A stretch of DNA of 64,000 nucleotides, taken from UHGV virus genome UHGV-0076294; one strand, written 5' to 3'. Position 1 is the first letter of the stretch. Every line of letters begins with the position of its first letter. The position numbers were made by a program, and so were the translations under genes. Shown here piece by piece: positions 35,783-60,377 of this stretch. The stretch comes from a virus. A model generated the notes under the pieces. It did not search any database. It was given only the letters and a program-made list of their open reading frames with translations, and was not told where the DNA came from.

Positions 35783-35785
35783 TTA

Positions 35786-35819
35786 GCCCGGCCCCGCTGT
35801 GTACGGGGCTTCTTTTTTG
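35786..35819 (+). terminator. Rho-independent terminator
   Basis: gccccg-ctgtgta-cggggc followed by ttctttttt. Confidence 0.65.
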
Positions 35820-35836
35820 CCAAAGGAAACTGAAAC

Positions 35837-36445: not shown

Positions 36446-36451
36446 TACCAC

Positions 36452-36492
36452 GAGAGAACCTTCGGGTTCTCTCCCTTCTCTTTTATTTTTTT
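36452..36492 (+). terminator. Rho-independent terminator upstream of Rad50-like gene
   Basis: gagagaacc-ttcg-ggttctctc followed by T-rich tract. Confidence 0.7.
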
Positions 36493-36528
36493 CTTTTTAC
36501 ACCACGCTCCGTGAATATGGAGGTGGAC

Positions 36529-39033
36529 ATGTTAAAAGTTGAACGTATTGTACTTAAAGGGTTTACCGGAATGGGATTACACGAAATCGAAACCTTCGAT
36601 TTTACTATCCATTCCCCAACCACCATTATCCTCGGTGGTAACGGCTGCGGTAAGACCAGCTTACTGTCCGTGTTTCTACCTATCGCACCTTCGAAATCCG
36701 AATTCCGTGACGGGGGTTCTTACACCAACATCTGTTTGGTTAACGACCATCGTTACAAATTTAAGGTTGCACGTAAAGGCAACTCACTGGTTTGCGATAT
36801 CGAGAACCTGACGACGGGCACCAAAATCGTCGAACAAGGTAATGCGAAAGTGTATAACTCTCGTGTAGAAGAAATCACGGGCATTACAAAAGAGATTAAA
36901 GAGTTACTGAACGGAGAAGTGCTTTTAACGGATGCAGGAACGGAACTGCGTCGTAAGTGGTTCTACCGTTTAAGTACGTCAGACTTAACTTACGCGTTAG
37001 GTTTTTATCAACGTTTACGAAAAAACCTGACGATGTTAAACGGCGGTATTGAAATCACCAGCCGCAAGATTGCAGAGTTGCGTACCCGCGTGATTGATAA
37101 CGAGGAAGAACGTCAGCAGTTAGCAACACGGTTAAAAGCATTAGAAGTGGATTTACGTGAAGTCAACAAACAGATTGAACAACTGCCTGGTCTGAATCGC
37201 GACGTTACGGTGGCAACGATTCAATCGCTATTGCTTAAAATCGAAGCACCGATTAATGCTATCTTGGAACACCGTGGCGGATTACCTACGGAAGAACGGG
37301 TAGAGGAAGCACGACGCGTTGAAGCCACTGCCCGTGAAGCGGTGGTCTCTGCTGAAACAGAACTGTCCATGCTAAACAAAGATTTGTCTTTGTTGATGGA
37401 CGAGTCTACCCGCCAAGATTACCTGATGCGGAATCACGAAGGGTTAAAGAACACGGTTGCAAAACTGCGTGAGTTATTAAAGCAGTGGGACACCGAACAT
37501 CTTTTCCCTGAACTGTTTGCGGAGACCGTTAACATCGACCAGCTTAAAGCAGCGACGGATGCGCGTGTCTGGGGACAACGTTTAGGAACAACGCTGGACG
37601 CCATTAAATCGACAGAACGGTTGAACGTACTGGAAGAGAAACTGTTGACCTTAGACCAAAACTCATCTGGGTTGCGTGACCGACTACAACGCGTTGAAAA
37701 CGTATTGCAGAACCTCAACCACGAACGGAATCACTATTTGGAAACCGCCGAGGTTGATTGTCCGCAGTGTCAATTTAAATTCCGTCCGGGCGTGCGTCGT
37801 TCTTTGCCTGAATTGGAAGAAGCCATTCGTGGACAAATGGAGCAACGTAATACGTTACAGACTCAGCTTGATTCCGTATTGCGAGACCGTACGGAATTAG
37901 AGTCGGACGTTAATTACATGCGTCAAGTACGAGAAATCGTTTTAACATACTCGAAAGACCCGGTATTGAGTTTGTTCTTTAAACGTCTCCAGGAGCGGAA
38001 TGTCTTTACGGATAACCGCAGTCAATTCGGCAGTTTGTGTGCAGAGTTCGATCGTGAACTTTATTCCGCAATTGAATACCACGAAACGAAACACCGTTTT
38101 GCTAAAGCGGAAAAAGAGTGGGCAAACGCAGTTGCAGCGGTAGGTAACGTTGACGGTGCACTACAGCAGAAAATTGCCTTCCAGCAGGAGCGTTTGGGTA
38201 AGGCGACAGAAACGCTCTCAGAGCGCCGTAGAGAGCACGCAGTTGCTAATGATACCTTTTGTTATCTAAACGAACTTAAAGCCACTGTAGACAATTTTAA
38301 TGCGGTTTTTGAGCGTTTAGAGAACGATGTTAAGGTAACATTAACCAATACGGTGGTCGAAACGTTATTAAACGCCCGAGAAAACAAGTTGGATGCGTTC
38401 ACCACAGCACGGGAACGGTACCGTCAGATGGAAAACGAGCTCAACCAACTTACTGCGTTAGAAAAGGAGTTATCGGATTTACAGGCACAGCAATTCAATA
38501 ACAAACTGATGATTCAAGCGTTCTCGCCCGAGAAAGGGGTATTACGCAAATACTTCTACAACGCTATCGTGAGAATCACAGAATTAATGACGCGCTATAT
38601 CGAACAAGTCTGGACCTACCCTATGCGGGTCATGCCGTGTGACTTAACCGATGGTGACTTAGACTACACGTTCCCAGTGCAGTTAAAAACCCATCCTGAA
38701 CCGGTACCTGACGTGCGGAAAGGGTCGAAAGCACAGCGAGCCATCTTTAATTTGATGTTTCGTTTAACCGCTTACAAAGCCCTGAAACTTCATCAGTATC
38801 CGCTACTGTTGGATGAACCGTCAGAAGGGATGGATGAGGAACACCGAAATAACCTCGTCGGGTTTATTAAAACCCTGGCGAATTCCGGTGAGTTCTCTCA
38901 GTTACTGGTGGTATCTCACGAAGCAGAAATTCATTCAAAACTTAACGAAGCCGCATACTGTGTTATTGAACCTGAAGGCGTAACACTGCCTGCGGTATAC
39001 AACGAGGGAGTAAAAATTGTCTACGCAAACTGA
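36529..39033 (+). CDS. Rad50/SbcC-like recombination ATPase (T4 gp46-like)
   Basis: Walker A GGNGCGKTS near N-terminus, long coiled-coil middle with CPQC zinc-hook-like motif, C-terminal Walker B LLLDEPSEGMD and following SHE; SD ggaggtgg before ATG 36529. Confidence 0.75.
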   Translation: MLKVERIVLKGFTGMGLHEIETFDFTIHSPTTIILGGNGCGKTSLLSVFLPIAPSKSEFRDGGSYTNICLVNDHRYKFKVARKGNSLVCDIENLTTGTKIVEQGNAKVYNSRVEEITGITKEIKELLNGEVLLTDAGTELRRKWFYRLSTSDLTYALGFYQRLRKNLTMLNGGIEITSRKIAELRTRVIDNEEERQQLATRLKALEVDLREVNKQIEQLPGLNRDVTVATIQSLLLKIEAPINAILEHRGGLPTEERVEEARRVEATAREAVVSAETELSMLNKDLSLLMDESTRQDYLMRNHEGLKNTVAKLRELLKQWDTEHLFPELFAETVNIDQLKAATDARVWGQRLGTTLDAIKSTERLNVLEEKLLTLDQNSSGLRDRLQRVENVLQNLNHERNHYLETAEVDCPQCQFKFRPGVRRSLPELEEAIRGQMEQRNTLQTQLDSVLRDRTELESDVNYMRQVREIVLTYSKDPVLSLFFKRLQERNVFTDNRSQFGSLCAEFDRELYSAIEYHETKHRFAKAEKEWANAVAAVGNVDGALQQKIAFQQERLGKATETLSERRREHAVANDTFCYLNELKATVDNFNAVFERLENDVKVTLTNTVVETLLNARENKLDAFTTARERYRQMENELNQLTALEKELSDLQAQQFNNKLMIQAFSPEKGVLRKYFYNAIVRITELMTRYIEQVWTYPMRVMPCDLTDGDLDYTFPVQLKTHPEPVPDVRKGSKAQRAIFNLMFRLTAYKALKLHQYPLLLDEPSEGMDEEHRNNLVGFIKTLANSGEFSQLLVVSHEAEIHSKLNEAAYCVIEPEGVTLPAVYNEGVKIVYAN

Positions 39034-39217
39034 TTGGTGGCGTCAGTTACTAAGCGTTTTAGGGTTTAGCGTCATGGTGCTGGTTGCCATTCTGTACGTG
39101 CTATTTTGTATAACGGCGATTTTATGGGTGGTCTTAGCGTACGCGATTAGGCTCACCTGGGGTTCAATTTGGCACCAACGCGAATGTGAGTGGCGGTGTG
39201 TTGGAGGGAAGTCATGA
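39017..39217 (+). CDS. Small membrane protein candidate
   Basis: TTG start with SD gagggag; hydrophobic stretch VLGFSVMVLVAILYVLFCITAILWVVLAYAI. Confidence 0.3.
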   Translation: MSTQTDWWRQLLSVLGFSVMVLVAILYVLFCITAILWVVLAYAIRLTWGSIWHQRECEWRCVGGKS

Positions 39218-39324
39218 TTGAGGGTATTCTGTTAACACTTGGGTCGTTGTGGATTATTGGGAAATCCCTCAACTGGCTGATTAATAAGTACGGATGGGCT
39301 TTCAAAGGCTCTACGCACAGTTAA
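39214..39324 (+). CDS. Small hydrophobic peptide candidate (36 aa; not in ORF track)
   Basis: SD ggaggg 5 nt before ATG; ATGA overlap with previous ORF; MIEGILLTLGSLWIIGKSLNWL...; followed by hairpin. Confidence 0.35.
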   Translation: MIEGILLTLGSLWIIGKSLNWLINKYGWAFKGSTHS

Positions 39325-39331
39325 GTTAGGA

Positions 39332-39360
39332 CCCCCTCCTGGGTAACTGGGAGGGTGTTT
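39332..39360 (+). terminator. Hairpin terminator
   Basis: ccctcc...ggaggg followed by tgtttt. Confidence 0.45.
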
Positions 39361-39374
39361 TACGAGGGAAAACC

Positions 39375-39503
39375 ATGACTGTTGTCAATACTACCAATGC
39401 TGCAATTGGCGCTTTATACAACGCGGAACTAACATGGGGTGCGGGTTTTATTACCGTACTACTTCTTGCCGCAGCCGCTTTTATCATTGGACGTTGGTTT
39501 TAA
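39375..39503 (+). CDS. Small membrane peptide candidate (42 aa; not in ORF track)
   Basis: SD gaggga; MTVVNTTNAAIGALYNAELTWGAGFITVLLLAAAAFIIGRWF has a clear TM segment. Confidence 0.35.
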   Translation: MTVVNTTNAAIGALYNAELTWGAGFITVLLLAAAAFIIGRWF

Positions 39504-46760: not shown

Positions 46761-47229
46761 TCAGATGTTGATGGAAGCATTTAAACCAGGAGAAGGAGAG
46801 AACGTATCAAGAGCAAACAAGATAATGACTTTAATCATCACGGTCTTGTTATCCTACTCGGCTTTCGTCTCCTATGCGTACGTAGTGCAGTTTCACAAGC
46901 TCGTTACAGTACAATCGCATGATCAATACATGTCGCAATCTTACCAAGAGATGAAGCAAGATCGTGACAAACTGAAAGATGATAATGGTAGATTATACGA
47001 CAAGCTCTTTATTTGCCTCGGCCAGAAACCGCCATATGAAAGCGGGTACAGCTCGGTAAAAGAAGACGTCTCTGCCAAAGATTTAACACCTAAGAAACCA
47101 GAAACTCCTGTTAGCCCAGCTTCAACACCAGAACAACGCAAAGAAGCTTCGGCACGACCTGTTGGTAGTCAAGACGCTAACAGTTTCCGTCAGGAGATCA
47201 TAAAGACGTTATCGTCACCTAAGGAGTAA
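46726..47229 (+). CDS. Membrane-anchored protein (N-terminal TM, charged coiled-coil-like and Pro/Ser-rich tail)
   Basis: SD gaggtga; TM segment IMTLIITVLLSYSAFVSYAYVV. Confidence 0.5.
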   Translation: MGSFLKVLPFFIQMLMEAFKPGEGENVSRANKIMTLIITVLLSYSAFVSYAYVVQFHKLVTVQSHDQYMSQSYQEMKQDRDKLKDDNGRLYDKLFICLGQKPPYESGYSSVKEDVSAKDLTPKKPETPVSPASTPEQRKEASARPVGSQDANSFRQEIIKTLSSPKE

Positions 47230-47232
47230 CTG

Positions 47233-47688
47233 ATGAAATCGCTGTTATTCATCATGATTTTGTGCGTGGGTTTGGTGAGTAATAGCTATGGAGAACCCGG
47301 TAAACGGTCATCCTATACTGCGTTACAGCCTCCGCCAGCGCCACCTATCATGTTAAATTGGAAAATTGATAAAGACGCGATGCGGGAATATGTTGCGGAT
47401 GTGAATACATACGCTTATTACGTTTATCTCTACACACGAAACTTAAATCAGCAAGCAGTCAAACGCGGGTGGAATCCACCGATGTTAGCACCTATCTGCG
47501 AACGGTTTGAAATTCCTAAATTACATTCCGTTCCAGAAAAGATGCTATTAGACGAGAAAGCGTTAACGCCACAAGAAATCAGTCGGGATTTATCACGTAA
47601 ACTGAATTCGTTGTTGTGGAATTATCGCTCTGACCGGCAAGCTTTATTAGACGCCTACGATCAGTATCTGACAACGTGTTTGAACTGA
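47233..47688 (+). CDS. Secreted protein (signal peptide, Pro-rich N-terminal region)
   Basis: SD aaggag; MKSLLFIMILCVGLVSNSYG then LQPPPAPP; followed by terminator. Confidence 0.5.
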   Translation: MKSLLFIMILCVGLVSNSYGEPGKRSSYTALQPPPAPPIMLNWKIDKDAMREYVADVNTYAYYVYLYTRNLNQQAVKRGWNPPMLAPICERFEIPKLHSVPEKMLLDEKALTPQEISRDLSRKLNSLLWNYRSDRQALLDAYDQYLTTCLN

Positions 47689-47693
47689 CAACG

Positions 47694-47733
47694 CCTCCTG
47701 TATCCTTCGGGGTACAGGAGGTATTTTCTTTTT
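47694..47733 (+). terminator. Rho-independent terminator
   Basis: cctcctgtatcc-ttcg-gggtacaggagg followed by tattttcttttt. Confidence 0.65.
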
Positions 47734-47775
47734 AACGTTTAACCCCCTTCTAATGTATAGAGAAAGGAGCTTAAC

Positions 47776-48510
47776 ATGACATACCCGAAAACGATTCAAC
47801 CCACCTTACCGACGCTGGTAATTGGTGCTGACGCAGAAACCAAATCACTGCGTCCTGATGCGTATTTGTTAACCACAGGCTTAGTTGCCTTTGACGTACC
47901 GACTTTAAAAATGGTAGGGTCGTCGTATATGCGTATTGATCCTAACGACCCTAAAGCAAAAGCTGTGTTCCACGAAGACCCGCAAACCGTGGGGTGGTGG
48001 GAAGGTAAAGGAGAACCTGAATACGCGCCGTCTCGTGAAGCCTACACGGAAGCATGGGGTGGTACAACTCCTATGCCGGAAGCGCTGTGGGCAATGCGGA
48101 AGTGGTTAGACGAAATCACCGGCAAACACAATTTCGTTATTACCATGCGTGGGCCAGATTTCGATTCTCCGATTTTCATGAACGCGTTCGCACAATGTGA
48201 CGTCCCTCCAGGTAAGTTCCGTAAGTTTAGTGCGTTAGACAGCGACCGCACCGCAGAGCGTTTAGCGCTGGCGTTTGGTTTTGAGCCTGACTTGACCGTT
48301 GAGCAAGTTTACTGGACGCGGGGTAAACCGGCATTTGAACACCATGCTTTGTGGGATGCCGCGAAAGAAGCGTACACCACCGCACGTATTTATCACCTTG
48401 CACTGATTACCCGCGAGTATGGGTACGAACGTGCTAAAACCTGTCACGAAGAACTGAAAACCGGTGAGTATATTCCACCACAGATTCGTGATCAGTTAAC
48501 CAGGGATTAA
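47776..48510 (+). CDS. DEDDh-type 3'-5' exonuclease (DexA-like)
   Basis: SD aaaggagc; Exo I-like GADAET near N-terminus and Exo III-like HHALWDAAKEAYTTARIY near C-terminus. Confidence 0.6.
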   Translation: MTYPKTIQPTLPTLVIGADAETKSLRPDAYLLTTGLVAFDVPTLKMVGSSYMRIDPNDPKAKAVFHEDPQTVGWWEGKGEPEYAPSREAYTEAWGGTTPMPEALWAMRKWLDEITGKHNFVITMRGPDFDSPIFMNAFAQCDVPPGKFRKFSALDSDRTAERLALAFGFEPDLTVEQVYWTRGKPAFEHHALWDAAKEAYTTARIYHLALITREYGYERAKTCHEELKTGEYIPPQIRDQLTRD

Positions 48511-48512
48511 GA

Positions 48513-50024
48513 ATGAAGAACGTTGATGTTGCTGTACTTTATACCGACGGTAGCCATTTAACCTCACCGATGGGAACAGGCGGTGGGATTCACGGCTACC
48601 TGTTTAACAAGGAAGAGATTGTTGACGGTGGCGTTTATCGCCACCCTACCATTCCCGAAGGGATTACGACCTCTGGTTATCGTCAGATTAACAAAGAGGA
48701 AAAACTTCCTGCGTTACCAGACTCTGTTGAGTTCGTAGACTGTGTTATTCCGGTACCGAAACACCACCACTCTGATGTTGCAGAGATTGTTGCTTTTTTA
48801 ACCGTTTTCGAAAAAGCACCGTTCGTTGCAAAAAACTACGTTATCTATATCGACGCGTCTTACGTTGTGAATACGTTTAACGATTGGATTGACGGTTGGG
48901 CTAAGCGGGACTGGCGACGGGCTGATGGAACCCCTATCGCGAACCTTGAACTGGTTCAACGGATGTGGGAAATTAAGAAACGTCTGAAGAGAGAAGGGAA
49001 AGGGATTCGTGTTCTTAAAATCAAAGGACACTCTGGTCACTACGGTAACGAACGGGCTGACGGGCTGGCACGAAAGGGATCATCCATCTCTGCGCACGGA
49101 GAAGGTTTAGATTATCAGGCGTACTGGTCAGCAGACGAAATCCCGGAAGAACAGCAGGAAGAAATCGTCAGTGAAGGCGTTAACGTTGCCGCGTTTCCTG
49201 ATATTTGCGTAACTAAGTTCTGTTACCCGATGGTAAATGAGCAACACCCTACGGTTAAAGTAAACGGTGAAAATCTCTATTACATGTTCGGGGGTAACCA
49301 CGCAAAACAGAAGGACGATATTGTCTTCGTCGGAAAATACATCCCTGATGCGCAGTTTTGTGTGATGTTTACACGTGAACCGTGGACGAACGTTTACGAT
49401 TTGGTTAACGCCCACGCTGCTAAAGCCTGGGAGGGCGTACCACGTTTGCGTCAGTTTGACCCTATCGCTGTTGTGTTCAACCTGTTCGTAAAACGTAAGA
49501 AGTTTGCGGAAGCAGCGGCTAACGGTATCCCGGTTGACAAAATGCACTTTAGCGAAGACAAAAACCTGTGGATGTACGAAGACTTGTCTATCAGTCGTAT
49601 TCTGCGTCCCGCGTTATTGTCATACCGCTGCGTAACCATTCGTGATGAACTGGCAGAGTGGCTGCGTGACTGTTTGGAAGGCAAATCGAACGTTGTCTTA
49701 AATGACATTACCGATTTGCTTTATGACGAAAAAGGTAAACCCACCAAAGACTTTTACCGAAACGTGGATAAAGGGTTTGACGTTTCCATTAAAATTCCTA
49801 ACGGGAAGGTTGACGTTAAAACTATTCTGACGCGTGCTATCGACATACCGACACGTACGGAAATCAACCGTATCAAAGAACCAAACGGGAGATTCTACAT
49901 TGCCGTACGACGTCCAGAACGTCAGTATATTGAATATGCGTTAGTGTATATCGGTGAGAAGTATCATGGTCTGTGGTGTGGTTATTATTCAAACAAACGA
50001 ATATTGACCGATAAGGAACTTTGA
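48513..50024 (+). CDS. RNase HI-like domain protein with about 300-aa C-terminal extension
   Basis: LYTDGS, IDASYVVN, and KIKGHSGHYGNERADGLARKG match catalytic motifs of type 1 RNase H; C-terminal two-thirds has no recognisable motif. Confidence 0.7.
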   Translation: MKNVDVAVLYTDGSHLTSPMGTGGGIHGYLFNKEEIVDGGVYRHPTIPEGITTSGYRQINKEEKLPALPDSVEFVDCVIPVPKHHHSDVAEIVAFLTVFEKAPFVAKNYVIYIDASYVVNTFNDWIDGWAKRDWRRADGTPIANLELVQRMWEIKKRLKREGKGIRVLKIKGHSGHYGNERADGLARKGSSISAHGEGLDYQAYWSADEIPEEQQEEIVSEGVNVAAFPDICVTKFCYPMVNEQHPTVKVNGENLYYMFGGNHAKQKDDIVFVGKYIPDAQFCVMFTREPWTNVYDLVNAHAAKAWEGVPRLRQFDPIAVVFNLFVKRKKFAEAAANGIPVDKMHFSEDKNLWMYEDLSISRILRPALLSYRCVTIRDELAEWLRDCLEGKSNVVLNDITDLLYDEKGKPTKDFYRNVDKGFDVSIKIPNGKVDVKTILTRAIDIPTRTEINRIKEPNGRFYIAVRRPERQYIEYALVYIGEKYHGLWCGYYSNKRILTDKEL

Positions 50025-50692
50025 TGCTGATTGTTTTTAGTCAAGCGTTATCGATGGCACCGAGTTATATCCAGATACGCTTTTCAGCAATTGCGCGTCA
50101 GCAGTGGGGCTTTAAAGCCCCCTATTCTGACGACCACTATACACTCGGTGAAGTAGCACTTGAACTTGCTTTACGTTCATTGTGGGAAATCATTGCATTG
50201 TACAATGCAGGTTGTGATATACCGAAAGATTGTTTCCCACAGCGGGTGATTGCACAAGGCACTACGAACACTTACGGTAATCCGGCATTGGTGGAAGAGT
50301 GCTTAGGCTACGCTAACCAGTCTGGGGAACTGCAACATAACTTTAATCTGGTGATTAACAAAGTCTGGAGTGAGCTGGAAAGCTACCCTGAAAAGATTAT
50401 CTGGTTTGATCGTAACCAATTCGTTAAGGAGGTGGCCAGTAAACGACCCGTACGTTTAGTTGCCTTAAAGCCCACCGACCTTGATTTGAAACAAACCTAT
50501 CCCTTCCCAGAGGAAATTCGACTTTCTCCAGAAACCGTAGGTCACACTATTTTCAAACAAGGTGACGCCTGGATACTTCCTCACGATCTAGACCGTTTCC
50601 TGCTCAACTCCGATCAGATTCACTCCGGCTATGATTCTCTCGTAAAAGAGTTTCACATCGATCCCTATTTCGCTAAAAACTTTCTTAGATAG
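50024..50692 (+). CDS. Hypothetical protein
   Basis: SD aagga before ATG 50024, overlapping previous stop. Confidence 0.5.
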   Translation: MLIVFSQALSMAPSYIQIRFSAIARQQWGFKAPYSDDHYTLGEVALELALRSLWEIIALYNAGCDIPKDCFPQRVIAQGTTNTYGNPALVEECLGYANQSGELQHNFNLVINKVWSELESYPEKIIWFDRNQFVKEVASKRPVRLVALKPTDLDLKQTYPFPEEIRLSPETVGHTIFKQGDAWILPHDLDRFLLNSDQIHSGYDSLVKEFHIDPYFAKNFLR

Positions 50693-50706
50693 ATATTATT
50701 CAGGTG
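50691..50706 (+). promoter_or_regulatory. AGATATTAT-type motif (candidate promoter)
   Basis: tAGATAGATATTATTCAGGTG upstream of 50730 gene. Confidence 0.3.
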
Positions 50707-50729
50707 TAGAACCCTCGGAGTTAATCACC

Positions 50730-51467
50730 ATGTTGAAAGTTTATGTCCCTCAATTACAACGTATTAATCCCTCGTTGTTCGAGGGATTCTTTTATAAAAT
50801 TTGGCCACAATACTTCAATGAACACCTGAAAGACTCAAAATGGTCATCTGTCCAAGGAGAATTCTTTTACACCGCACAATCAGCCTGTACAAATGTCTTT
50901 ACCCACCTCATCTCTGAGGTTATTGACGCTGTCAACACCAACCGAAACTTTGACCTTCGTGACGTCATAATAGATCTCTCAGCGATCTTCGATAACTACG
51001 ATTGCGATGACGCAGTATTCGAACATTTCTCCTCTGAAGATGTGTGGGAGGCCGTTTATCAATGGCTAGAATACTACGTGAATTTTCTACTTTCCTCGAA
51101 CATGTTAGAAAATTACAATAAAGCACTCTTTCCCATTTATAACGACTTAATGAACGTTAAACTGACAAAGAATCTCGTTGGTTTTTGGTATTCGACCTAC
51201 GACGCTGAAAGCAGGTTGTGGGAAAAAGAAATGATCGCTTACGGCATCGAGCGCGGCGATTATGATGAATTATATCGATGTTATTGGCCATTCAATCATT
51301 ACGAAAAAGGGTGTCAAGGCGATCCGTATTTGTGGTCTTTTTATTTCTGTAATCAGACTGGTGTTATTTATCTTGAAGACACCGGTGTACGAATCCCTAA
51401 CGGTACTGATGTAACATACTGCCAATTACGTAAAGACCGGGCTGACGCCATTTATCAGGATTATTAA
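50730..51467 (+). CDS. Hypothetical protein
   Basis: ORF preceded by conserved AGATATTAT motif and SD ggag. Confidence 0.5.
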   Translation: MLKVYVPQLQRINPSLFEGFFYKIWPQYFNEHLKDSKWSSVQGEFFYTAQSACTNVFTHLISEVIDAVNTNRNFDLRDVIIDLSAIFDNYDCDDAVFEHFSSEDVWEAVYQWLEYYVNFLLSSNMLENYNKALFPIYNDLMNVKLTKNLVGFWYSTYDAESRLWEKEMIAYGIERGDYDELYRCYWPFNHYEKGCQGDPYLWSFYFCNQTGVIYLEDTGVRIPNGTDVTYCQLRKDRADAIYQDY

Positions 51468-51468
51468 C

Positions 51469-52011
51469 ATGAAATTACTTATCGATTTTTCTCTGAGTTC
51501 GTCACGCGACAGGCTAAATAAAATACTTACTGAAATGCGAAGTAAAGTGACGTTAGAATTGCACGATGCGATAGCGGTATACGAGAGAAAGCTAACGAAA
51601 GAGAACAACGGGGAGACCGTGGTGATCTTAGACGCTAAAGCGATGGTGGATTTTCTGGTAGACGTTTTAGAAAGACGGATACACGCAGTGATAGAACGAC
51701 CCTACCTGGTTCGTGTGACCGACCCAGACACTACGGTAGATTCGATACTGGAAAAAGCATTCGTTGACGCAGCACACTATTTACAAAATCATTCCCCAGA
51801 CGATTTCGAAACGATTTACGTTGGTGTTATACAGCAACAGAATGCTGAAACCAACATAGTCGATACTGTGTGCTGGAGCGATATTCTTACTAATGAAACC
51901 ATGTCTCGCATTCGAGATATCTTTATTGAAAATTTGGCATTAGTAAAAAGGGTGTGTAGTTCCGAGATTATTTATTTATCATCGAAATACGAAAAACCTA
52001 AAGGGGTATAA
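51469..52011 (+). CDS. Hypothetical protein
   Basis: Start immediately after previous stop (taacATG). Confidence 0.5.
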   Translation: MKLLIDFSLSSSRDRLNKILTEMRSKVTLELHDAIAVYERKLTKENNGETVVILDAKAMVDFLVDVLERRIHAVIERPYLVRVTDPDTTVDSILEKAFVDAAHYLQNHSPDDFETIYVGVIQQQNAETNIVDTVCWSDILTNETMSRIRDIFIENLALVKRVCSSEIIYLSSKYEKPKGV

Positions 52012-52013
52012 CC

Positions 52014-52538
52014 ATGGATATTTTAATTCAGCTTCGTAAGAAAACAACCATTGCCACGCCGATAGCGTTAGAGGAGAAAATCTCTGGCGCGGTTGCACGC
52101 AAGCTCTGTGGTGCTCACGGCTTTAGCAGTCATCAGGAACAGGTCGTTACTGCCGCCACATTACACAACTTACGGCACACAGTACATTACTGTTTAGCTG
52201 ACAACGTCACCATCACTCTTGATGATGGCGCAGCAGCCGACCAACTGCGTCGTGAAATTGACCACAAGATCGGCGTTTATAAAAGACGTTTTGATCGTGC
52301 CTGTGCACGTTTAACCGATGACAAGGAATTATGGAAACGTTTGAAACTTGAAATTGAGTATGCGGCGCAGCGTTACGGGATTGGCGGTACCGAACCGTTG
52401 CTGTCCGAACAAGAAATCATGTTAGCAATCGAAGTTTACATCACCGTTTGTATCGCCATCCTGAAAGAAACCGACTACGAAATTACAAAAGCGTTGTTAA
52501 ACACCGCAGACAGACTCACCCCAATTTTAGGACAGTAA
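52014..52538 (+). CDS. Hypothetical protein
   Basis: SD aaagggg; tightly packed. Confidence 0.5.
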   Translation: MDILIQLRKKTTIATPIALEEKISGAVARKLCGAHGFSSHQEQVVTAATLHNLRHTVHYCLADNVTITLDDGAAADQLRREIDHKIGVYKRRFDRACARLTDDKELWKRLKLEIEYAAQRYGIGGTEPLLSEQEIMLAIEVYITVCIAILKETDYEITKALLNTADRLTPILGQ

Positions 52539-52539
52539 A

Positions 52540-53025
52540 ATGAACTTAAATGCAATTATCAATCTCTCTAATAGCGACATTGTCCACGAGTTTCTGAACC
52601 ACTGCGATCGCACAGAACAGTCTATCCGTAACATGTTAGCTCCGAAAACAGTGGATGCCATTTGGATAGCTTCACAGGCAGCGGGCGTTATCGTTGCAAG
52701 ATATCGCGCGACATTACTAATGAGTCTGGACATTTTCTTCGATCGACCAGGGCCTATTACATGGACTTCTATCGGACGTCGGCTTTATGACATACGTATC
52801 GAAACCCTACGCTCGATAATTAATGGCTGGCACAACGGGTATATGCCTGACGTAATAGTACCCTACACTGTTCCCGAATGGCGACGCTTTTATAGTCAGA
52901 TTTGGAGTAATGAAAGCGTTTATCATGAAATAGTGGCTCTTATCAGTGCTGACCAAAGCCAACTTGCATACCAGCTATGGGAGTGGCTAAAAGCTAATTA
53001 TCCTGATTACGTCAAAATCGACTAA
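52540..53025 (+). CDS. Hypothetical protein
   Basis: Start 1 nt after previous stop; followed by terminator. Confidence 0.5.
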   Translation: MNLNAIINLSNSDIVHEFLNHCDRTEQSIRNMLAPKTVDAIWIASQAAGVIVARYRATLLMSLDIFFDRPGPITWTSIGRRLYDIRIETLRSIINGWHNGYMPDVIVPYTVPEWRRFYSQIWSNESVYHEIVALISADQSQLAYQLWEWLKANYPDYVKID

Positions 53026-53030
53026 TAGAC

Positions 53031-53063
53031 ACCCTAGCTTCGGCTAGGGTTACTTTATTTTTA
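53031..53063 (+). terminator. Rho-independent terminator
   Basis: ccctagc-ttcg-gctaggg followed by ttactttattttt. Confidence 0.65.
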
Positions 53064-53084
53064 ACCATTTTAGGAGAATATACC

Positions 53085-54017
53085 ATGTATTTGTACAAAA
53101 GTAAAAAAGTAAAAGGTATTAAAGACTGCCTTAGACAAATGGGGAGTCAGCATCTAGAAAATGTCATGGAAGAAAATCAAACAAAAGAAAATCCTGTCTC
53201 GAAATGGATAAAAAAGAATCGTAATCATCTAACCAATAGCTTTATACCGTATAATGAAGATTTAGGTCTCAAAGATCCACGTTCCCTTCACGCTCAAACA
53301 TTGGCAATTGGATGGCTATACGGCGGGGCTTCCTTAATATCCGATCGAGCACTTAGAGAACTTGTTTTTGAGACTGAGATGCCCAGTAAATTCCCTGAAG
53401 AATGGTTGGACTTTATACCTACTTGGACTGTGGCAATCGATGTAGGTAAAGAGGATGAGACTTTCTTTCTCGGTTATCGAAAAAATGGGAAGAGAAGGTT
53501 TATTATAATTGCTACAAATACTGATTACGGGTTAACAGAAGGCGTTACCACGATTGCCACTTGTTCGTTAGAGCTTCGTAGTGCAGGAAACGGACTTGTG
53601 GAAATCGACTATGCCGACGGTGTGGAGAACGAACAAGAAAAGATGCTATGGTTATCTCTGGCCAAAGCCGCCACATCGATGATATTTCTGTGTACGCTAA
53701 TCCCACCTAATCTCAAAACGTCTTACAATGACGTTAAGTTCAAAGAAATCAAAAAGAACGGCAGTATTAGCTACGAAGTCAAACCTCGTGAACGTGATGT
53801 TAAAGTGGATATCACACCAGGACAAGTAAAATATCTAAAAGGATTTAACACCGACTTGAAAGCCATGCAGGGTATCAAACACGCTAAAGCTGCGCACATT
53901 CGTCGTGCCCACTGGCGTAGATACTGGGTTGGTCCAAGAAACGGTGAAAGAAAAAGAAAACTTTGCTGGATTCCACCGACATTTGTTCGCGGCTACGTAC
54001 CCCACACGCAAGACTAG
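53085..54017 (+). CDS. Hypothetical protein, paralog of 54028-54912 (C-terminal AHIRRAHW...W.GP...W.W..PTF motif)
   Basis: SD aggagaa; C-terminus AAHIRRAHWRRYWVGPRNGERKRKLCWIPPTFVRG. Confidence 0.55.
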   Translation: MYLYKSKKVKGIKDCLRQMGSQHLENVMEENQTKENPVSKWIKKNRNHLTNSFIPYNEDLGLKDPRSLHAQTLAIGWLYGGASLISDRALRELVFETEMPSKFPEEWLDFIPTWTVAIDVGKEDETFFLGYRKNGKRRFIIIATNTDYGLTEGVTTIATCSLELRSAGNGLVEIDYADGVENEQEKMLWLSLAKAATSMIFLCTLIPPNLKTSYNDVKFKEIKKNGSISYEVKPRERDVKVDITPGQVKYLKGFNTDLKAMQGIKHAKAAHIRRAHWRRYWVGPRNGERKRKLCWIPPTFVRGYVPHTQD

Positions 54018-54027
54018 GAGAATTATA

Positions 54028-54912
54028 ATGTTAAGACGCAGAATTTATGGAGACACGCTTCGACGTATTAGTGAAGCTATAGAGACTGCACACAAAGACT
54101 TGTTTGGTCTGAAGGAAGATCGTTTTCTAACGTTTGTCAGGGAACACAAGAGGCAACTTCCTGTAACCTTTCTGCCCGTTAACGACCCAACGTACCGTGT
54201 GTTCGGCACCACCAAACAGGTGCCGTATTCTATTCGCCAATCGTTAGGTTTGGGCTGGCAATACGCAGGTATTGAAATTATCTCTGATAAAGAGTTGATG
54301 GGACTACTTGCAGACACAGAACGTTTAACGGATATTCCGTACGCGTGGATTGAAGCAATTCCTTCATTCACCTTTTCCGTGACTGTAAAGATTAACGAAC
54401 TACCCGCTACGCTCTTTATCGGTCGTCGTAAATTCGAAGGTGAGGAAGTATTGTTCGTTTTACGATGGGTGGAGATAAATCAGCGGCACTGTTGGTCAAC
54501 CAAGATTTATCGGTTCAACAGAAAGGCAGATGACTTTGTTAGTTTAGAGCCTTACTTTGCTAACGAGTCAAAGGACGAGGAACTTCTGGATGAGGTACAT
54601 ATCGGTTTATATCTTTCCTCGCGGGTGAAGAAATCGGAACGCGAGAGACGGGAATACCGTGGTAGAACGACACGTTACGTACCTGATACAGAAATCCTCC
54701 CACGCAGAGAACCTGTCGTCGTTGACGTAAGTCCAGTACAACGCGAAGACTTAGAAAAACAACGCAGGGAAGGCAGGAGAATCTGTTTAACGCCTCATCG
54801 CGCAGCACACATACGCAGGGCTCATTGGAAACGGGTCTGGTGTGGGCCAATGACAGGACCACGCTGGCAGGAGTGGCGATGGATTGCACCCACCTTTATA
54901 TCTGGTTTTTAA
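54028..54912 (+). CDS. Hypothetical protein, paralog of 53085-54017
   Basis: SD aggagaa before ATG 54028; C-terminus AAHIRRAHWKRVWCGPMTGPRWQEWRWIAPTFISGF. Confidence 0.55.
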   Translation: MLRRRIYGDTLRRISEAIETAHKDLFGLKEDRFLTFVREHKRQLPVTFLPVNDPTYRVFGTTKQVPYSIRQSLGLGWQYAGIEIISDKELMGLLADTERLTDIPYAWIEAIPSFTFSVTVKINELPATLFIGRRKFEGEEVLFVLRWVEINQRHCWSTKIYRFNRKADDFVSLEPYFANESKDEELLDEVHIGLYLSSRVKKSERERREYRGRTTRYVPDTEILPRREPVVVDVSPVQREDLEKQRREGRRICLTPHRAAHIRRAHWKRVWCGPMTGPRWQEWRWIAPTFISGF

Positions 54913-54928
54913 TGTGAAAATAAAGATT

Positions 54929-54976
54929 ACCCCTAGACCACAAGGTCTAGGGGTAGCTTTTACTTTTTATTTTTTG
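54929..54976. terminator. Bidirectional terminator between convergent genes
   Basis: cccctagacc-acaa-ggtctagggg followed by tagcttttactttttatttttt. Confidence 0.7.
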
Positions 54977-55722
54977 TTTGCCTTCAGCGCTTTCAGGCGT
55001 TCAGCCGTCACGTTCAGACATTCAATCAATTCGTTCACCTGTTTCATGAACAAACCAAACAGTTCAACCCAATCGGATGCAAAGTCTAACATCGCTGTCA
55101 GTTCTTTTGCCACGTTAGGATGAATGTTTTGTTCAGACAGAATCGTTGCAGAGGCTTTAATAGACTCGATGGATTTGTCGATGTTCGTACGAAGTTTCTT
55201 CGTGATTTCAACGTTCAGTGCTTTTGCACGGTTAAACGCAATATCGATCTCCGTAGCACTGTGGTACGTTTTCTCAATCGGACGCTGGTCAATAACGTTG
55301 TTGATGTAAGACTTAGCCAACTGGTTAACCAGGTCTTTCGGATTCACGTTACGTAACGGAATGTTAACGTTTTTATAACGGAAACCGATAGGTAATGACA
55401 GTACGCCCACATCATGTGTAAGGGCGGAAAGTTGCAACTCAACAGGTAAAAGGACACCGTCGTAGATCTTCTGTAATGAACTCCATACCGATTCTAAGCG
55501 GTTAATGTGATCCATTACGTAGGTATTGAAGCCTGGCGGTACAATAACCAACATGCCTGCAAAGTGTAAGAATTTTTCCTGTTGCATCCACTTGGAAACG
55601 TCTGACATGTCGTCGTAAGTGGTTAATGCAATCTCTTGTTGAGGGCCACTGAACCCTTTGGGTAAGATTGCAGACGCTTTAGCGGCAAAGCTAGTTAACG
55701 CTGCAAGTGGATTTACGTTCAT
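54967..55722 (-). CDS. Hypothetical protein
   Basis: Minus-strand ORF bracketed by bidirectional terminator. Confidence 0.5.
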   Translation of the reverse strand: MNVNPLAALTSFAAKASAILPKGFSGPQQEIALTTYDDMSDVSKWMQQEKFLHFAGMLVIVPPGFNTYVMDHINRLESVWSSLQKIYDGVLLPVELQLSALTHDVGVLSLPIGFRYKNVNIPLRNVNPKDLVNQLAKSYINNVIDQRPIEKTYHSATEIDIAFNRAKALNVEITKKLRTNIDKSIESIKASATILSEQNIHPNVAKELTAMLDFASDWVELFGLFMKQVNELIECLNVTAERLKALKANKK

Positions 55723-55819
55723 TTAAAACCTCGGATTATAAGTCAGGGTTACATAGTAAAGTCTTTTTACAGTTCATCCTGAACTTATGACCGAGATTAT
55801 CTCATAAAGGTAAAGCTCG

Positions 55820-56119
55820 ATGAAAATCAAATTACTGACTCGAAACACCACGCCTCGTCTGGAACCGGAAATCTATCTTACCCCGGTGAAAAAAGACAAA
55901 GAAGGTAAGCCTATTCAAGTAGGTAAGATTCTTAGCGTGACCTCTTTACCTAACGGTAAGCGCGTGATGGAATTAGAAATCGACGAGCGCAACAAACGTC
56001 GTTTCGAGTCTATTGAGAACCCCTATCCTGAAAAATCGGAAGAAGTCACCGAGTGGGTAGAGACCTACTTTGAATTCTGGCACAAACGCCGTCTTCTTCT
56101 TCCGACCAAGAATCGTTAA
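55820..56119 (+). CDS. Hypothetical protein
   Basis: SD aaaggtaaag; basic C-terminus. Confidence 0.45.
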   Translation: MKIKLLTRNTTPRLEPEIYLTPVKKDKEGKPIQVGKILSVTSLPNGKRVMELEIDERNKRRFESIENPYPEKSEEVTEWVETYFEFWHKRRLLLPTKNR

Positions 56120-56134
56120 TTATTGGAGCGCTAA

Positions 56135-57631
56135 ATGGCAGGCCCAACTAAGCAAGTTATCGGTGAAGTAATTCGTCCTCGTTTTAACGTTTATACCATC
56201 ATGGACCACGCCTTAGGCAACTACGAAAGAGGCGAAGATGGTTTATACTACCTTAACGGTGGTTTTGCCCACATCATGGGTTTCGCGGGTCGTGGTAACA
56301 CCTTCAAATCCACACTGTTGGATTTCTGTATCTTCCAAATCCTACAACGCTATAAAGCAGAGTGGGGTTCGAAATACGATACCGAAGTGTCTGCTGCCCT
56401 CGATCGCTTAGAGACCGGTTATATTTCTGCCATGCACGCCAACGGTATTGACGATGGAACTTCGGTACTGGAACTTATTCACGAAGGTCGTTATAACCTC
56501 GTTGGTTCTGACGTGATGCCAGGGGAACAATATTACAGTGACTATATTCGTGATGAAGTGGAAAAACGCTTCAAGCAGTATATGTCTGGTAAAACGCGTG
56601 TAACGCCGTTCCTCGACCCGGTTCGTCGTAAGCAAAAAGAAATCCTTGACCCGTGGCTGTATTCTATCGACTCCCTGTCGGAGTGGCACTCGTCTTCTCT
56701 GGAAGACAAGCACGCTAAAACGGATATCGGTGATTCCGATCAGAACATCCTCAACGCCCACGACGCCTTACAGAAATCGAACATGATGAGCCGTTGGCCG
56801 TCTGCGTTTGCCCGTGGTGGTTTCTACATGGGCTTTGTTGCACAGATGGCCGATGACTCCGGTAAGGCGATGGCAGGCGGTCGTCAAGGACAGAAAGCAA
56901 ATGCGAAACTGCTGGACGATGCGAACGACGATCTCAAATTCGCAGGGATTCCTCGTCGTCAGTTAAGCTTCCTGACTAACTCGTTTATTGTTGCGACAAA
57001 ATCAGGCGAGCTGAAAAAAGACCAGAGTTATAACGCCCAGACCGGTGTTAACGAAGAACTTTACCCAACCGCACGTTCAAAAGCCATGAACGCGTCGGTT
57101 AACGACCTGAAAGTTATCACCTTTACGCAGTACCGTGCTAAAGGCGGTCACACAGGCGTGAAGTTCCAGATGATCTTCTCGCAAGAGATGGGTCTACTGT
57201 ATCACCTGAGCCTGTGGCACTACCTGAGTGATACCCTGAAAAAATCCGAATTTGGATTTACATCCAGCGGTAGCGGTGGTTCCATTAAAGAACTCCAGAT
57301 TCTGCCTGGTGTTAAATTCCAGCGTACGACGATTCGCGACATGATCGACGATAACCCGAAACTGCGTCGGGCATTAGAAATCACGGCCGCGATTGCGTAC
57401 ATGCAGAACAACTACCATCGTTTAGAGGTTAAATACCACCTCACGATGGAAGAAATCTACAAACTCATTGATGAAAAATGGGATTGGAATGAGATTCTGG
57501 AGAACACCGTAGAATACTGGATGTTTAAAGACCAAGAAACGAAAGGTGGTAAACGTACGTTAACTGCCCGTACGATTCTGGGTATGGCCGTGGACGGCCT
57601 GGAACCGAAGTTCCTCACCAAAAAGAAATAA
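56135..57631 (+). CDS. ATPase candidate with RecA/UvsX-like Walker motifs (recombinase-like, uncertain)
   Basis: GFAGRGNTFKST resembles the UvsX-type P-loop (G....FKS) and LYSIDSL a RecA-type Walker B; length (498 aa) atypical. Confidence 0.3.
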   Translation: MAGPTKQVIGEVIRPRFNVYTIMDHALGNYERGEDGLYYLNGGFAHIMGFAGRGNTFKSTLLDFCIFQILQRYKAEWGSKYDTEVSAALDRLETGYISAMHANGIDDGTSVLELIHEGRYNLVGSDVMPGEQYYSDYIRDEVEKRFKQYMSGKTRVTPFLDPVRRKQKEILDPWLYSIDSLSEWHSSSLEDKHAKTDIGDSDQNILNAHDALQKSNMMSRWPSAFARGGFYMGFVAQMADDSGKAMAGGRQGQKANAKLLDDANDDLKFAGIPRRQLSFLTNSFIVATKSGELKKDQSYNAQTGVNEELYPTARSKAMNASVNDLKVITFTQYRAKGGHTGVKFQMIFSQEMGLLYHLSLWHYLSDTLKKSEFGFTSSGSGGSIKELQILPGVKFQRTTIRDMIDDNPKLRRALEITAAIAYMQNNYHRLEVKYHLTMEEIYKLIDEKWDWNEILENTVEYWMFKDQETKGGKRTLTARTILGMAVDGLEPKFLTKKK

Positions 57632-57636
57632 AGTCG

Positions 57637-57663
57637 TTAGGGTAGGGTAATCCCCTACCCTAG
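57637..57663 (+). other. GC-rich hairpin (weak terminator or RNA processing site)
   Basis: tagggtaggg-taat-cccctaccct, no clear U-tract. Confidence 0.35.
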
Positions 57664-57676
57664 CTAAGGAGTCGTT

Positions 57677-57976
57677 ATGCGTTATCAAACGGAGATTGTG
57701 GAGCGCTTAAGCGAAGGTTTAGCCAGCGTCAGTCTGGAAACAGCAGCGGCATTTCGTGAGACTTTCGCTACTTTCTTTCCCGATCGTGAATCTTTTTGTT
57801 TAAAGGTCGGTGAATATTATTCCAAGTTACTCGAACACTACGGTTACCCGCCGGTGAAATTCGACGTACCTGAAAACACCGACGACATCAGTTATTGGAT
57901 TGAAACCCTCGAAGCAGGGACACTTTCCAACTTGCGTAAGGCGGTAGAAAATGAGACTCGATCCAGCGCGGCGTAA
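57677..57976 (+). CDS. Hypothetical protein
   Basis: SD aaggag. Confidence 0.5.
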   Translation: MRYQTEIVERLSEGLASVSLETAAAFRETFATFFPDRESFCLKVGEYYSKLLEHYGYPPVKFDVPENTDDISYWIETLEAGTLSNLRKAVENETRSSAA

Positions 57977-58619
57977 AAAAGCAGAAGCTTACGCCTTACA
58001 AATCTTAAACCTGGTTGACCCCTCTGGGATTAATGCAGAGGCAGCAAAGAAAGCTTTTGCTCGAATGACAGACGAACAGTTTAATCGTCTTCGTGAAGGG
58101 CTACCGATTTACAACCCGGTTGGCAGCAAAGTTAAAATAGACCACATGCGAAACGTTGAGCTATGTCGTGTTTTAGGTTTGAACCTGGAACAGCGGTTGT
58201 GGTTAACTGAGCCGAAAACGGGTGTTTTCCATCGTACCCGCTACCCACATCTGGTATTGCGCTTGCCTGCGCGTCGTCAAACGCAGATGCAAGAAAAGAA
58301 AATGGCAGTAGCGAAGAACGACAAAGTTCGTGATAAACTCTCCGGTCAAGTTGTTGGTCCTTCTAAAGCATCTGGTGTATCTTTCCCAGAAGCGTACATC
58401 ATGTACTCCGATGGTCACGACTGGACACTGAAAGAGTTTCTGTGGGCGCGTGGGGGTAACGAAGCTTTACAACGTGCGTTCTATCAATCGTTACGTCAAA
58501 CCGGTAAGGGACGTATTGACCTGCCGGGAGCAGAACGTACCAGTTCGAAAGCAACACGTACCTGGTCTGCGTATCTGAAAGCGATGCACATTGGTAACAA
58601 CATAGGCCATCCGTCATGA
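57951..58619 (+). CDS. Hypothetical protein
   Basis: Overlaps previous gene; basic protein. Confidence 0.45.
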   Translation: MRLDPARRKKAEAYALQILNLVDPSGINAEAAKKAFARMTDEQFNRLREGLPIYNPVGSKVKIDHMRNVELCRVLGLNLEQRLWLTEPKTGVFHRTRYPHLVLRLPARRQTQMQEKKMAVAKNDKVRDKLSGQVVGPSKASGVSFPEAYIMYSDGHDWTLKEFLWARGGNEALQRAFYQSLRQTGKGRIDLPGAERTSSKATRTWSAYLKAMHIGNNIGHPS

Positions 58620-59338
58620 GATTTTCTCGACGTTTTTTGATTGATATCGATGCGTTGTTTGACACCCGAATCGGTTGGGTCAAAGCCATCAAACCTGAAA
58701 GATTGGAAATTATGGATTACGACGTTTATCGTCGTCGTTTTACGGAGGAATGGGCGACTGTCTTGGGGTTTGAGAATTGGAAAGAGGAATATCAGAAACG
58801 TGATAAACGCGCGTTAATGAATGCGGAACCCACCGAACTGTTGTTGACGATGAAGAACGAGTTCGAATGTATGTTACTCGAAATCGAGATGCATTCGCCT
58901 ATCGAAAAACCGACGCTGACAATTAACACCTGGCCGTATACTGATCTTACTGACCAAGAAATGCAAACGTTCTTGCAGATGTTCCGTATCTATTACGATA
59001 TGGTGCAGGTTGAGTTAGTGTCGTGGCCGCATTCGGAACTTACGCCGGGTCGTTTAGCGACAGCTTGGGATTGTTGGATAATGTACGATTGGTTCGCTTG
59101 GATTGAACTCAATGCGAAACATCTGAAAAAGCCTATCCCTAGCTTTACCATTACGCACCCTGCCCTGCTAACGCCGGAACTTACAAAAGAGACGGTAGAG
59201 CAGCTTAAACGCGATGGTGTGAATCCGTTCAAGGAACACATCCGGTTTATGGCAGAGTGGGTCGGTGTCGACCCACGTGATTCTGCGCTATTTAGTCTGG
59301 CTCGTCCGAAGAAGGACGCGCAAACGCCGCAGTCATAA
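58616..59338 (+). CDS. Hypothetical protein
   Basis: ATGA overlap with previous stop. Confidence 0.5.
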   Translation: MRFSRRFLIDIDALFDTRIGWVKAIKPERLEIMDYDVYRRRFTEEWATVLGFENWKEEYQKRDKRALMNAEPTELLLTMKNEFECMLLEIEMHSPIEKPTLTINTWPYTDLTDQEMQTFLQMFRIYYDMVQVELVSWPHSELTPGRLATAWDCWIMYDWFAWIELNAKHLKKPIPSFTITHPALLTPELTKETVEQLKRDGVNPFKEHIRFMAEWVGVDPRDSALFSLARPKKDAQTPQS

Positions 59339-59756
59339 TGGACTTCACGTCAATTTGTTCGCCAACCGGAGCCAACTCCCCTTCCGAGATTTCTACGTTA
59401 GGAATGTCTGGAAGGGTGGGTTGGTAACCATTATTTTCATCAAGTTCTTCATCGTGACGTTTTATTTTCACGTTACCGCGTTGCATCAGAATTGTATTCA
59501 GTGCGTTAGCCAAGTCTTGGTTCGCTTCACTGTTTTTCTGGGCAGCGGCAACACGACGTTTAGAAATGATCTGCTTATCTAGGTCGTTTAATAACGTCCC
59601 GATACGATCCACAGTCTTTAAGTCTTTGTGAGCATTAGGATCGTCTAAGATTAGATTGACGATTCTGACACGGGCTTGTTGCGTTTGGCGGAGAAGCGAT
59701 TCTTCGTCGTCTACTTCACCATCTAACGCCTGGTATTTCACTTCTTCTTCAGCCAT
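59292..59756 (-). CDS. Hypothetical protein
   Basis: Minus-strand ORF convergent with 58616-59338, overlapping 3' ends. Confidence 0.45.
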   Translation of the reverse strand: MAEEEVKYQALDGEVDDEESLLRQTQQARVRIVNLILDDPNAHKDLKTVDRIGTLLNDLDKQIISKRRVAAAQKNSEANQDLANALNTILMQRGNVKIKRHDEELDENNGYQPTLPDIPNVEISEGELAPVGEQIDVKSIMTAAFARPSSDEPD

Positions 59757-59787
59757 TTAAAACCACCTCATTTTCAAAAAGAAGTCA

Positions 59788-59808
59788 GACAGATATTATT
59801 TACGTGAG
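59788..59808 (+). promoter_or_regulatory. AGATATTAT-type motif (candidate promoter)
   Basis: cAGACAGATATTATTTACGTGAG upstream of 59829 gene. Confidence 0.3.
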
Positions 59809-59828
59809 ACATTCTTTCGGAGTGAATT

Positions 59829-60377
59829 ATGTTTACAGGATTAATAACACGTTTTAAGAAACGTCTACAGCAAAAGCGTTTACAGGCTCTCAGAGAGTCT
59901 CTAAGGCAGGAGTTTCATAAGAACATCCATAACCCCTGCGCGAGAACGTTTAGCGGCTTACGGTTGCTTACGTTGCCTATAAACGTAGATACCGAACCCT
60001 ACCACCCCAGCTTACGTGGTAATCTCGAGTTACGTATCGCTAATCTCGATATTCTTTACCAACGTCTTGCTTTTTATATCAACGAATACCAACGCACGAT
60101 TAATGGAACCTCTATCGAGTGGTTATCATTGCCAGAGTCGTTAAGTAAACAAAAAGACTCATCGGAAAACCGCTGGTTAGACACTTATTTTGGGACGTCC
60201 AATCCGGCGGTTGCCTATTATAAGCTAACGCAGTTACTCGAGCTTATCGAACCTTACGAAGATATTTTCTTAAAGCCCAAGACCGATGAAGATCGGGCAT
60301 TGGTAAATCACTGTGCACATTTGTTTCGTGAAATGGAGGTACTCATCGAACACTACCTTTTAAACCGACCTGTTTAA
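59829..60377 (+). CDS. Hypothetical protein
   Basis: Preceded by conserved AGATATTAT motif and SD ggag. Confidence 0.5.
   Translation: MFTGLITRFKKRLQQKRLQALRESLRQEFHKNIHNPCARTFSGLRLLTLPINVDTEPYHPSLRGNLELRIANLDILYQRLAFYINEYQRTINGTSIEWLSLPESLSKQKDSSENRWLDTYFGTSNPAVAYYKLTQLLELIEPYEDIFLKPKTDEDRALVNHCAHLFREMEVLIEHYLLNRPV

Follow-up and report, generated by a model that had tools for sequence, protein, structure and literature searches.

Two diverged AcrVA2/FinQ-family genes in tandem at an accessory slot in an SPN3US/Asesino-like jumbo phage

The virus genome UHGV-0076294, of which a stretch of 64,000 nucleotides (the window, hereafter) was analysed, carries two adjacent genes, here termed A and B, which RefSeq and GenBank label 'hypothetical protein' and which can now be named AcrVA2/FinQ-like. 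Their best explanation, to which we assign a probability of roughly 0.65, is a cassette of two diverged members of the AcrVA2/FinQ family that would carry out target-specific, translation-coupled mRNA silencing, with proteins of host defence or of rival mobile elements, and not Cas12a, as the most likely targets. The pair is a new tandem, multi-allele member of a described family and not a new family, and homologs in 'megaphages' have been noted before (Al-Shayeb et al., PMC7162821; Marino et al., bioRxiv 10.1101/2022.11.29.518452). What gives it interest is its context in a nucleus-forming type of phage, a series of zero, one and two copies in a fixed slot, and apparent swaps of recognition modules on a constant effector domain.

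No bacterial protein other than AcrVA2 is known so far to recognise a polypeptide during its synthesis and to eliminate the mRNA that encodes it. Many AcrVA2 homologs reside on elements without Cas12a, and in the search for what such homologs target the locus described here can serve as a small natural experiment: it combines two diverged copies, several recognition alleles and an unchanged effector, and its sister phages have two copies, one or none, in hosts (Salmonella, Escherichia coli, Erwinia, Enterobacter) that can be cultured. Nucleus-forming phages, reported at the level of BLASTP to lack verified anti-CRISPR (Acr) proteins, carry distant members of an Acr family, and their presence there would suggest targets that lie in the cytoplasm and are not DNA-cutting CRISPR systems.

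Membership of the pair in the AcrVA2/FinQ family

The two genes and their ribosome-binding signals are placed as follows.

53085..54017, plus strand: gene A, 310 amino acids (aa), AcrVA2/FinQ-family protein, ortholog of the single-copy slot gene in phages Asesino (gp235), SaP7 and EC001
54028..54912, plus strand: gene B, 294 aa, more divergent AcrVA2/FinQ-family paralog
53072..53076, plus strand: Shine-Dalgarno AGGAG of gene A, 8 nt 5' of its ATG, read from the sequence
54016..54020, plus strand: Shine-Dalgarno AGGAG of gene B, overlapping the gene A stop codon, 7 nt before ATG 54028, likewise read from the sequence

A and B are a real tandem duplication that extends over their full length. 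BLASTP aligns them over 301 columns at 25% identity (E=6e-26) and, when the C-terminal ~55 residues are left out, still aligns residues 34-133 at 31% identity (E=1e-13), so that the similarity is not limited to short low-complexity stretches and the original prediction of tandem paralogs from one duplicated gene family stands. Identity between the two is 23% in residues 1-65, 35% in 66-120, 15% in 121-215, 22% in 216-262 and 51% in 263-305. Across the 64-kb window, a hidden Markov model (HMM) of the family matches these two open reading frames (ORFs) only. Gene A scores 112-127 bits against its single-copy orthologs versus 92 against gene B, and gene B, self matches aside, scores highest (100-102 bits) with gene A alleles from within its lineage; because A is the nearer to the single-copy orthologs and B is nearest to the A alleles of its own lineage, these scores weakly favour a duplication within the lineage, with B as the faster-diverging copy. 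The mechanically called ORF of gene B starts at a GTG inside gene A (position 53905; 335 aa), its frame being open for 41 codons 5' of ATG 54028. The true start is likely ATG 54028, because AGGAG precedes it and the resulting 294 aa agrees in length with the gene as called on contig L002, a relative of the window; no relative supports the longer form.

The original prediction could match the proteins to no family it could name; profile comparisons now place both in the AcrVA2/FinQ family (Pfam PF26125, 'AcrVA2-like'; PDB 7CI1/7CI2). The PF26125 assignment comes from precomputed Pfam tables together with profiles built in this analysis. In the former, PF26125 is listed at E<=1e-5 for two relatives of the window genes (P0001, 95% identical to A, and P0004, 99% identical to B) and for both L002 genes. 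A local Pfam-A scan of A, B and P0001-P0003 gave no match even at E<=10; the PF26125 model is apparently missing from that local library, and the negative scan alone would mislead. NCBIfam and PADLOC scans likewise returned no match for these proteins, and among PHROGs both genes match phrog_6160, of unassigned function (A, 5e-37; B, 1.3e-21). Searched singly against the PDB, gene A finds the AcrVA2 chain 7ci1_A (E=1.9e-4) through its C-terminal motif only. A profile of 10 jumbo-phage homologs reaches the same chain at E=7.5e-9 over residues 65-317, and a 148-sequence profile does so at E=3.3e-47 over its full length (chain residues 9-319). An HMM from 141 relatives, built without the window genes and their close relatives, recovers AcrVA2 (1.5e-43), gene A (2.9e-33) and gene B (6.8e-21) alike. 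An exhaustive HMMER search begun from the window genes gathers 3,024 cluster representatives at E<=1e-3, of which 1,116 reach E<=1e-10, with a median length of 333 aa and with HxRxxH[WYF] present in 152 of the 159 retrieved; a listing of cluster members yielded Asesino gp235 as its one informative name.

The residues of AcrVA2 that have been tested by mutagenesis are located in A and B as listed here.

53313..53345, plus strand: gene A W77 to D87, equivalent to AcrVA2 W79 and D89 (W in 141 and D in 106 of 148 relatives)
53889..53987, plus strand: gene A C-terminal-domain motif, residues 269-301, with H271, R273 and H276 equivalent to AcrVA2 H286, R288 and H291
54256..54288, plus strand: gene B W77 to D87, equivalent to AcrVA2 W79 and D89 in the family alignment
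54802..54900, plus strand: gene B C-terminal-domain motif, residues 259-291, with H261, R263 and H266 placed by the family alignment

In AcrVA2, the substitutions W79A and D89A weaken the downregulation of Cas12a mRNA, and H286A, R288A and H291A abolish it while leaving Cas12a binding intact (Marino et al., bioRxiv 10.1101/2022.11.29.518452). All five tested residues are kept in both A and B in an alignment that includes AcrVA2, and the spacing of 10 residues from W to D is the same in the three proteins. The His and Arg residues of H-x-R-x-x-H are invariant in 148 of 148 aligned relatives, and the position of D87 is occupied by D in 106 of them and by E in 17.

Two sequence blocks had been singled out in the original prediction, and their alignment with AcrVA2 identifies the internal one, found in both proteins as described (IGWLYGGASLISDRAL in A, LGWQYAGIEIISDKEL in B), as the W79/D89 region and the "basic Trp-rich tail" as the effector domain. 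The importance ascribed to the conserved C-terminal block was well placed; this is the HxRxxH domain with its invariant residues. Its description needs amending in several respects: the block does occur in both proteins (AAHIRRAHWRRYWVGPRNGERKRKLCWIPPTFVRG in A, AAHIRRAHWKRVWCGPMTGPRWQEWRWIAPTFISGF in B), its W-x-W-I element is true of B only, A having L-C-W-I, and neither protein ends with it, for about 10 further residues follow in A and about 4 in B. Nor is it a loose basic appendage, for in the gene A model it forms a folded domain of four beta-strands (residues 271-301), and what is conserved in it is not basic charge: the invariant residues are His-x-Arg-x-x-His plus Trp and Gly. The gene A model shows the AcrVA2 fold of three domains with a four-stranded C-terminal domain, the latter in agreement with the published C-terminal domain of AcrVA2 (PMC10846135). 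A first AlphaFold2 (AF2) model, from a 13-sequence alignment, had reached a mean predicted local distance difference test score (pLDDT) of 56 and yielded Foldseek noise only, missing AcrVA2, which was remedied with the 148-sequence alignment.

The slot, its copy number and its alleles

By gene content and order, the window derives from a relative of the jumbo phages SPN3US and Asesino. Its genes include those for a UvsX-like recombinase, 81.4% identical to that of Salmonella phage SPN3US, for RNase H and an exonuclease, and for an SbcC-like protein and giant virion proteins. The order of genes around the pair is that of Erwinia phage Asesino and of the Seoulvirus phages SaP7 and EC001. Asesino and SPN3US are, by experiment, nucleus-forming chimalliviruses (PMC11724907; PMC13282480). 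Megablast of the region against the phage collection gave no match. An Enterobacter ludwigii 'plasmid', NZ_CP134650.1 (222,441 bp, circular), is 95.9% identical over window positions 47000-60000, a match that probably extends to all of the window, and has both genes; because of this match, Enterobacter is suggested as the host. The record, 'plasmid unnamed1', is described as non-mobilizable and derives from strain 51A:C, a gull cloaca isolate; in the part compared (28517-39443) it has a jumbo-phage gene order (RNase H, UvsX-like protein, virion proteins), and it has the appearance of a chimallivirus-type phage genome that was entered as a plasmid.

The cassette is bounded by two hairpins.

53031..53050, plus strand: upstream terminator-like hairpin, ACCCTAGCTTCGGCTAGGGT followed by a T-rich run (-15.5 kcal/mol, z=-4.65), which ends the upstream gene block and opens the cassette
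54927..54956, no single strand: bidirectional terminator-like hairpin (-28.8 and -27 kcal/mol on the respective strands, z=-6.9 and -6.4), which closes the cassette

The bidirectional hairpin is shared with a convergent gene (54967-55722, minus strand), and an equivalent of the upstream hairpin precedes the homolog in Asesino, SaP7 and EC001. These three phages have the AcrVA2-like gene in the same slot, with small genes 3' of the RNase H gene on one side and a convergent 251-aa gene, a 99-aa gene and the UvsX-like gene on the other, and with the upstream hairpin and ribosome-binding site (RBS) laid out as in the window. SPN3US (JN641803.1) has no copy, its slot consisting of 62 bp with only the homologous bidirectional hairpin (3220-3283), whereas EC001 (3686-4730), SaP7 and JN03 have one, the hairpin, RBS and a 307-aa gene being inserted just 5' of that same terminator. 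Within the species Seoulvirus SPN3US, the AcrVA2-like gene is hence a presence/absence polymorphism, and the SaP7 and EC001 alleles are not alike. The slot is accessory and variable in copy number, because there are zero copies in SPN3US, one in Asesino, SaP7 and EC001 and two in the window, L002 and NZ_CP134650.1, and because an AcrVA2-like match occurs in just 4 Salmonella/Escherichia phage records as against 28 with a UvsX-like protein 80-90% identical to that of the window. A structural or essential role was rejected because SPN3US does without a copy.

Every described phage with a match has a single copy. The jumbo-phage homologs, which belong to phrog_6160, comprise Asesino gp235, the hypothetical proteins of SaP7 and EC001, Dickeya AD1_242 and Special G gp231 ('putative protein FinQ'), and gene A is just ~29-32% identical to such single-copy homologs, whereas the UvsX-like protein encoded nearby shows 81% identity to its SPN3US counterpart. 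Another phage-encoded AcrVA2-like protein is ORF43 of Shewanella phage vB_SbaS_Y11, a putative AcrVA2 found by structure comparison with 7CI1; it differs in belonging to a 63-kb siphovirus, in being single-copy and in standing nearer to AcrVA2, with a reported similarity of 37.7% (PMC10846135).

Comparison of near-identical phages divides gene A into a variable and a constant part.

53085..53729, plus strand: gene A variable module, residues 1-215, made up of the N-terminal helical domain together with the greater part of the middle domain, the predicted target-recognition part

Over 12.9 kb the window matches contig L002 at 94.7% identity, and DNA identity between the two drops to 55-86% at 52634-53830 as against 94-100% elsewhere, a divergent tract that spans the 3' two-thirds of the upstream gene and gene A codons 1-215. 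In these codons the synonymous divergence (dS) is 1.48 and the ratio of nonsynonymous to synonymous divergence (omega) ~0.19, with dS in the flanks at 0.23 (gene A codons 216-310) and 0.14 (gene B). Five gene A alleles taken from near-identical phages form at least three classes in residues 1-215 (60-88% identity), whereas their residues 216-310 are 97-100% identical. The pattern indicates replacement of the tract by a diverged allele via recombination. Positive selection acting on the variable module in situ was considered and rejected as unproven, the omega and saturated dS fitting recombination with a diverged allele. The hot spot begins inside the upstream gene (52540-53025, 161 aa), ahead of gene A itself, with 72% DNA identity and a dS of 1.86 at positions 52634-53083; two genes are thus covered by the exchange. 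This 161-aa gene is apparently kept in SPN3US, which is without the AcrVA2-like gene. The overlapping frame that opens at GTG 53905 was rejected as the cause of DNA conservation at the 3' end of gene A, as the whole neighbourhood is 94-100% identical and related contigs call ATG 54028.

Proposed action and its alternatives

The family and fold of the proteins, the retention of the mutagenised AcrVA2 residues, the accessory nature of the slot and the division into variable and constant modules are shown here; from homology with AcrVA2 we infer a mechanism, a cytoplasmic site of action and a type of target. The helical N-terminal domain and the middle domain would bind a specific target polypeptide, probably nascent on the ribosome, and the C-terminal beta-strand domain with HxRxxH would trigger loss of the target's mRNA. 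The cytoplasm would be the site of action, as it is there that a nucleus-forming phage has its mRNAs translated. A and B, and likewise the differing alleles, would aim at different targets; for the two copies this is probable because they share only about 14-35% identity outside the C-terminal domain. More tentatively, and at what we would put as somewhat worse than even odds, the locus may represent a modular nascent-chain silencing system of nucleus-forming enterobacterial jumbo phages, in which a constant effector (residues 216-310) is combined with recombining recognition modules (residues 1-215; at least three allele classes among ~96% identical phages), tandem duplication adds a second specificity, and the targets are cytoplasmic non-CRISPR defences or rival elements. 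Were this so, the targets would sit in the cytoplasm, the sole compartment that the phage nucleus leaves unprotected.

Several observations weigh against silencing of this kind by the pair. Gene B alone has no match in the PDB (phmmer), structural alignments with AcrVA2 give just 12-16% identity, and because the global template modelling score (TM-score) to AcrVA2 is 0.40, the domain arrangement may differ from that of AcrVA2. The function of the jumbo-phage members is predicted from homology, and the AcrVA2 mechanism itself comes from a preprint in which the step that destroys the mRNA is unknown (bioRxiv 10.1101/2022.11.29.518452). The omega of ~0.19 with saturated dS in the variable region of gene A signifies allele exchange and no demonstrable positive selection, and, given that the tract also covers an unrelated upstream gene, the module boundary may partly mark where recombination ended.

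The closest precedent would make A and B true anti-CRISPRs that silence Cas12a (type V-A) as AcrVA2 does, and their homology to AcrVA2, the retention of all its tested residues and an earlier proposal that huge-phage proteins clustering with AcrVA2 are possible Acrs (PMC7162821) all speak for this. AcrVA2, however, is encoded in a Moraxella bovoculi prophage next to acrVA1, in a host that has Cas12a, whereas A and B stand in tandem on an SPN3US/Asesino-like jumbo phage of virulent type, with Enterobacter as probable host and with no recognisable acr or aca partner. An Aca-like helix-turn-helix (HTH) gene was not found adjoining the pair: none of nine neighbouring proteins has a Pfam domain at E<=0.01, and the PHROG matches of the neighbours are all of unassigned function. 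Enterobacter typically has type I and not type V-A systems, which also counts against Cas12a as the target. A BLASTP survey of phages with a ChmA or PhuZ gene reported no verified Acr among them (PMC11448039). Cas12a is an unlikely target because most AcrVA2 homologs sit in bacteria without it (Marino et al., bioRxiv 10.1101/2022.11.29.518452), because the N-terminal and middle domains that would bind the target are far diverged from those of AcrVA2 (12-16% identity), and because nucleus-forming phages are already shielded from DNA-targeting CRISPR systems; we regard this possibility as very improbable.

FinQ provides a different precedent. It belongs to the same family, sharing the C-terminal HxR motif and domain fold and diverging in its N-terminal parts, and its target is a non-CRISPR one: it inhibits conjugation of the F plasmid, apparently by lowering tra mRNA (Marino et al., bioRxiv 10.1101/2022.11.29.518452), and because of this the family can act on targets other than CRISPR. 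A and B might then be weapons that silence genes of a co-resident plasmid or a co-infecting phage and not host defence genes. The homolog in Erwinia phage Special G is already annotated as a FinQ protein, and the presence/absence and turnover of alleles suit a conflict gene. FinQ is, however, plasmid-borne and single-copy, unlike the tandem phage pair, and a tblastn search with gene A against the plasmids of PLSDB did not reach it, finding only the phage-like Enterobacter record. Sequence does not separate a host target from one in a rival element, and this alternative departs from the best explanation in the identity of the target alone, the mechanism being the same; on balance we consider an exclusive role against rival elements unlikely, if a good deal less so than one against Cas12a.

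The view taken in the original prediction, that the basic, Trp-rich C-terminus is a generic tail for binding nucleic acid or membrane and defines the role of the protein, draws on a segment that is indeed rich in Arg, Lys, Trp and His, and the C-terminal domain may make contact with RNA or the ribosome in bringing about mRNA loss. Conservation, however, centres on H, R, H, W, G, W and P, not on charge, and the AcrVA2 variants H286A, R288A and H291A still bind their target yet no longer downregulate its mRNA, which is the behaviour of an effector and not of a tether. Association with a membrane finds no support, neither protein having a hydrophobic membrane segment. A role defined by a generic tail therefore seems highly improbable, and target-specific silencing by a folded effector domain is preferred.

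Other features of the window

The two hairpins that flank the cassette have a common CCCTAG...CTAGGG stem core (ACCCTAGcttcgGCTAGGGT and CCCCTAGACCacaaGGTCTAGGGG). A scan for sigma-70 promoters found fewer sites than in shuffled sequences and is uninformative for a phage that brings its own RNA polymerases. At 10800-25863 on the minus strand, a run of four genes (products of 401, 1727, 1402 and 1441 aa) matches overlapping sets of PHROGs annotated 'virion structural protein' (2163, 7449, 8078 and 7557), by which this stretch is identified as a giant paralogous virion protein block such as occurs in SPN3US-like phages. A radical SAM domain protein is encoded at 5127-6449 on the minus strand (phrog_1802, 1e-114), and an SbcC-like subunit at 36511-39033 on the plus strand (phrog_77, 5e-91).

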